Source: a phage
Sequence record: MK163348.1
Length of the DNA stretch: 436 nucleotides
Reading direction: 5' to 3' (one strand)
Shown here: positions 2 through 436 of the stretch, one piece after another
Numbering within the stretch: position 1 is the first letter of the stretch
Layout of the letters: the number at the start of each line of letters is the position of its first letter
Notes under the pieces: model-generated
Told to the model about the DNA's origin: nothing
Database searches by the model: none
The model's input: the letters and a program-made list of their open reading frames with translations, nothing else
Made by a program: the position numbers and the translations under genes

Positions 2-436
2 GTAGTTGTTGACCGTGTATTCTTCAGCAAACTGACTAAGCATCCTAAGATTCGTGACGCTTATCTTGCACAGCAGACTCCACTGGCTTGGCAGCAGATT
101 ACTGGTTCTCTGAGAACTGGTGGTACTGACGGCGTTCAGGCTCATATGAACACTTTCTACTACGGTGGTGTTAAGTTTGTCCAGTACAACGGTAAGTTCA
201 AAGACAAGCGTGGTAAGGTTCACACTCTGGTGAGCATTGATAGTGTAGCAGACACTGTTGGTGTTGGTCATGCTTTCCCTAACGTAGCTATGCTGGGTGA
301 AGCTAACAACATCTTCGAAGTTGCATATGGTCCATGTCCTAAGATGGGTTACGCAAATACACTTGGTCAGGAACTGTACGTATTCGAATACGAAAAAGAC
401 CGTGACGAGGGTATTGACTTCGAAGCGCATTCCTAT
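2..436 (+). CDS. Partial CDS, truncated at both ends by the window; uncharacterised protein, probably a highly expressed phage gene (abundant virion or DNA-associated protein); family not assigned
   Basis: Frame 2 is open for all 145 codons. Sense frames 1 and 3 are closed early (TGA 10-12, TAG 3-5) and repeatedly. Strong codon bias by hand count: GGT 14/15 Gly, ACT 8/9 Thr, CGT 4/5 Arg, TTC 8/9 Phe, CAG 7/7 Gln, GAC 8/9 Asp, CTG 6/8 Leu. First codon position is G-rich, as expected for a true coding frame. The phage attribution rests only on codon dialect (AAG over AAA, no CCG, about 46% GC) and is an inference. Confidence 0.85.
379..392. repeat. Perfect 14-bp palindrome CGTATTCGAATACG centred on TTCGAA, inside the CDS (codons Tyr-Val-Phe-Glu-Tyr-Glu)
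   Basis: Read directly: nt 379-392 equal their own reverse complement. Flanking bases 378 (a) and 393 (a) do not extend the symmetry. Biological role unknown. Confidence 0.6.

Follow-up and report, generated by a model that had tools for sequence, protein, structure and literature searches.

Among the closest described systems are two relatives of Felix O1 whose capsid structures have been solved. The capsid of Escherichia phage Bas63 (JohannRWettstein) was determined by cryo-EM at 3.1 Å (PDB 9NCF; Sci Adv 2025, PMC12609058), and its capsid protein, gp8, has the canonical HK97 fold with an N-arm, an E-loop, a spine helix, and P and A domains. The Bas63 shell has T=9 architecture with 535 copies of gp8, and its surface carries 540 copies of a beta-tulip decoration protein together with a Hoc-like protein at the centres of some hexamers (PMC12609058). 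The virion and the empty virion of Shigella phage Sf14 have been solved as PDB 9C2D and 9C3A (Commun Biol 2025, PMC11821841), and in this phage the capsid protein, gp34, has the traditional HK97 fold in a T=9 head. The role of these two proteins in forming the shell has thus been shown experimentally (PMC12609058, PMC11821841). More distant is gpE of phage lambda, the type member of the Pfam family Phage major capsid protein E (Phage_cap_E, PF03864). The head of lambda, a siphophage, is T=7, whereas the Felix O1-type head is T=9 and belongs to a myophage.

The DNA analysed here, which we call the window, is a stretch of 436 bases. Its translation in frame 2 of the plus strand gave 145 codons without a single stop from base 2 to base 436, whereas the remaining two plus-strand frames had 16 and 7 stops and two of the three minus-strand frames had 10 each. 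When the window was subjected to mononucleotide shuffling, any of the six frames was fully open in only 24 of 20,000 shuffles and therefore the open plus-strand frame is not due to chance. The commonest bases at the first, second, and third codon positions in this frame are G, A, and T, respectively, which is the usual coding signature. No ORF of note that runs from ATG, GTG or TTG to a stop was found within the 436 bases, and this fits a gene whose start and stop both lie outside the window.

We identify the 145-residue fragment, with a probability of about 98%, as coming from the interior of the gene for the major capsid protein in a phage of the Felix O1 type. In Felix O1 (NC_005282.1) the major capsid protein (Felix01p112, NP_944891.1, ORF58) is identical to the fragment in 144 of 145 residues over its residues 203-347, and the gene that encodes it has 368 codons. 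At the DNA level 422 of 435 bases are identical, and of the 13 codons that differ all but one are synonymous. The only amino acid difference is at fragment residue 42, which is Thr in the window and Ala in Felix O1, and this is variation at the strain level. The profile matches agree with this identification. The fragment matched PF03864 with an E-value of 1e-19 and 71.2 bits, the curated gathering cut-off of this family being 22.9 bits, and it aligned to profile positions 193-313 of 329, while the full-length Felix O1 orthologue matched the same profile with 264.5 bits (1.6e-78) over positions 2-328. In PHROGs the match was to PHROG 29 (phrog_29, major head protein) at 2e-20. The feature to annotate at 2..436 on the plus strand is therefore a partial major capsid protein gene with both ends missing, equivalent to residues 203-347 of a 368-residue protein. 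Going by the relatives, the start codon and the first 202 codons would lie upstream of the window and the last 21 codons and the stop downstream. The first-pass annotation had placed the whole window inside one protein-coding gene with its start and stop beyond the ends, and both the open 145-codon frame and the 368-codon gene of the relatives bear this out. Its residue counts (9 Tyr, 9 Phe, 1 Trp, 15 Gly, and one Cys in a GPCPK context) were reproduced exactly, and the structural product that it suggested is in keeping with a capsid protein. What did not survive is its statement that the product could not be placed, which is refuted by the match to NP_944891.1.

A megablast of the window against 50,697 phage records gave 257 matching records, all of which covered at least 80% of the window, with 131 at 95-99% nucleotide identity and 88 at 90-95%. 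Nearly all of these phages are of the Felix O1 type and infect Escherichia, Salmonella, Shigella or Citrobacter, and more than 100 Felixounavirus genomes are 96-98.6% identical to the window. Of the 25 listed among the 257 matches, all are Felix O1-like; the annotation is major capsid or head protein in 19 and 'hypothetical protein' or absent in the others, and no conflicting product name was found. The capsid gene in the window is thus already known and well characterised, and it is annotated in hundreds of genomes. The top DNA matches were REP10 and REP11 (98.6% over 426 bases) and finno and mio (97.5% over 435). Finno, REP10, and Felix O1, which are among the top matches, have been placed in the genus Felixounavirus and their nucleotide identity to the window is 96-98.6%, a level that assigns the window to a Felixounavirus capsid gene, the genus of the phage as a whole being a question for a whole genome. 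No record identical at 100% was found in the collection of 50,697 phage records, either at the DNA level, where the best was 98.6% over 426 bases, or at the protein level, where the best was 144 of 145 residues, and the last 51 bases of the window had no exact match in IMG/VR viral contigs. Because of this, the window is likely to come from a strain of the Felix O1 type that is slightly different from the deposited genomes. The residues of the window at variable positions are each present in one or another known relative.

At the protein level tblastn gave Felix O1 at 99.3% amino acid identity; the identity was at least 99% in 25 records and 95-99% in 171. Identity fell to about 93% in the Citrobacter phages Mijalis (Mooglevirus) and Maleficent, to about 66% in the Erwinia Kolesnikvirus, and to about 24-32% in the capsid genes of Pseudomonas, Wolbachia WO, and Limnohabitans phages. 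The capsid genes of Wolbachia WO prophages (AB036666.1, 21138-21473) are thus distant relatives, with about 30% identity to the Felix O1 capsid fragment, and the old annotation of AB036666.1 reads 'similar to unknown protein of phage Felix 01'.

Comparison with the solved chains extends the assignment to the fold. Residues 203-347 of 9NCF chain A are identical to the fragment at 142 of 145 positions (E=1.9e-95), the three substitutions in Bas63 gp8 being at fragment residues 12, 84, and 96. Chain A of 9C2D/9C3A matched at 3.6e-90 with about 90% identity; relative to the window, Sf14 gp34 has one extra residue near fragment residue 85 and scattered substitutions, and Mijalis shows the same one-residue difference from the window. 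By its near-identity to 9NCF_A and 9C2D_A the product of the window is assigned the HK97 fold. A single-sequence AlphaFold2 model of the 145-residue fragment was unusable, with a mean pLDDT of 34.4 and a pTM of 0.31, and therefore the assignment of the fold rests on identity to the solved chains. From the general topology of HK97 proteins, residues 203-347 would correspond mainly to the A domain with the returning strands of the P domain.

The relationship to lambda depends on the method by which it is looked for. In a pairwise BLASTP the fragment and lambda gpE had no significant similarity (E=0.22), and to this extent the first-pass annotation was right that the fragment does not match the lambda capsid protein. 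At the profile level this does not hold because both belong to PF03864; lambda gpE matches the profile at 1.7e-72, and gpE and the Felix O1 major capsid protein each match it end to end. That the pairwise similarity is insignificant explains why the fragment looked unfamiliar by eye. The gene order of an S49 protease, a decoration protein, and a capsid protein is common to the Felix O1 type (2626-5501 of L003) and to the C/Nu3-D-E genes of lambda (1-2161 of L007). Despite the same order of the head module, Felix O1-type phages and lambda differ in their tails and in their T numbers.

In finno, REP10, and Felix O1 the genes are arranged in the order terminase large subunit, portal, two small genes, S49 protease, a gene for a 125-residue protein, the capsid gene, and then neck and tail genes, the last of which code for the sheath, chaperones, and the tape measure. 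The 448-residue 'head maturation protease' of these relatives matches Pfam Peptidase_S49 at 5.5e-39. The product of the 125-residue gene (Felix01p111 in Felix O1, 3984-4361 of L003; also 1985-2362 of L002 and 1-369 of L006) is the decoration protein, as seen from its matches to the PDB chains 9NCF_J (3e-76) and 9C2D_J (7.6e-71). In the Felix O1 RefSeq record, in REP10, and in Omen this gene is labelled 'tail protease', which looks like a misannotation that has been propagated. Since the window comes without flanks, we infer the start, the stop, and the neighbours of its own copy from the relatives, and by analogy with them this copy would sit in the same head module.

Could the fragment nevertheless belong to a divergent or uncharacterised protein family, as the first-pass annotation had considered? 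We give this virtually no probability because matches to the fragment were obtained in Pfam, in PHROGs, among GenBank annotations, and in the PDB. High-identity matches to annotated and characterised proteins, which the first-pass annotation had itself named as the finding that would count against its reading, were obtained with Felix O1, Bas63, and Sf14. It could also be argued that the fragment comes from a copy that has decayed or lost its function, for example through a frameshift or as a relic, and not from a working capsid gene. There is a relative in which the gene looks disturbed: in Shigella phage vB_SflM_004 (MK295205.1) the capsid gene (353-1495 of L004) is annotated as two CDSs, 353-970 and 1145-1495, and its translation shows local disturbances of the frame when compared with other members. 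This split is probably due to a sequencing or assembly indel and is not biology, and because the indels invalidate an ungapped comparison of codons, this phage was left out of it. The window itself has no stops and no frameshifts, and its product differs from the functional Felix O1 protein in a single residue. Moreover, its differences from its relatives are overwhelmingly synonymous, as expected under selection. The ratio of synonymous to non-synonymous codons was 10:2 against finno, 9:1 against REP10, and 12:1 against Felix O1, which adds up to 31 versus 4 in three comparisons that are not independent of one another, and third positions accounted for 10 of 12, 9 of 10, and 12 of 13 nucleotide differences, respectively. 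These numbers fit purifying selection on the plus-strand frame, and a decayed copy is very unlikely.

Among the minus-strand frames, the one whose codons align with the sense codons is open as well, with 145 codons and no stops across 2-436 of the window, and this had been missed in the first-pass annotation. Taken by itself, an open frame of this length, frame 1 of the minus strand, could be a real gene on the antisense strand or a second gene that overlaps the capsid gene. The frame is open because the sense strand lacks TTA, CTA, and TCA, and no other codon can produce a stop on the opposite strand in this register; leucine is encoded in the sense frame by 6 CTG and 2 CTT codons. Where a gene is strongly expressed, codon bias usually leads to such an absence. 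Relatives interrupt the same antisense frame, with one stop in finno and three stops in the Erwinia phage Omen. No Pfam family matched the antisense translation of the window, the substitutions fall on third positions of the sense frame, and no gene is annotated on that strand in finno, REP10, or Felix O1. We therefore consider an antisense gene, even one peculiar to this strain, to be extremely unlikely and rejected this ORF as a shadow frame of the capsid gene.

Among the minor features of the window is the single Cys (codon 335-337, fragment residue 112, residue 314 of the full-length protein), which lies inside GPCPK at fragment residues 110-114. It is conserved in Felixounavirus and Mooglevirus but in Erwinia phage Omen it is replaced by Ala and the motif is GPANK, so that conservation of the Cys does not extend to the whole subfamily. 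Because of this replacement a conserved disulfide or metal site is unlikely, and the idea that this Cys has some special role is unsupported. A repeat scan found one direct repeat of 18 nucleotides in two copies with 83% identity, at 43-60 (TCCTAAGATTCGTGACGC) and at 337-354 (TCCTAAGATGGGTTACGC). Both copies encode a peptide that contains Pro-Lys, HPKIRDA and CPKMGYA, and the repeat is most likely due to chance. The scan found no inverted repeats in the window, and neither strand of the window had a match in Rfam at E<=1.

If the product of the window behaves as its relatives in Bas63 and Sf14 do, it would be an HK97-fold subunit of a T=9 icosahedral head. We take the source phage to be a myophage of the Felix O1 type (Ounavirinae, Felixounavirus) with Salmonella, E. 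coli or Shigella as its host. Assembly of the shell would involve the prohead protease of the S49 family, encoded two genes upstream of the capsid gene, and the shell would then be coated by the trimeric beta-tulip decoration protein, whose gene would be immediately upstream, and by a Hoc-like protein at the centres of hexamers.

As a call of a coding region, the result is correct for a gene that is commonly annotated and whose product has a solved structure in two close relatives, and as such it matters little. What it does illustrate is that the lambda gpE family of capsid proteins has diverged too far for recognition by eye or by pairwise comparison, but that profile methods detect its members at once. 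The fragment can now be entered as the major capsid protein of a Felixounavirus (HK97 fold, PF03864), and with this it leaves the lists of unexplained features.
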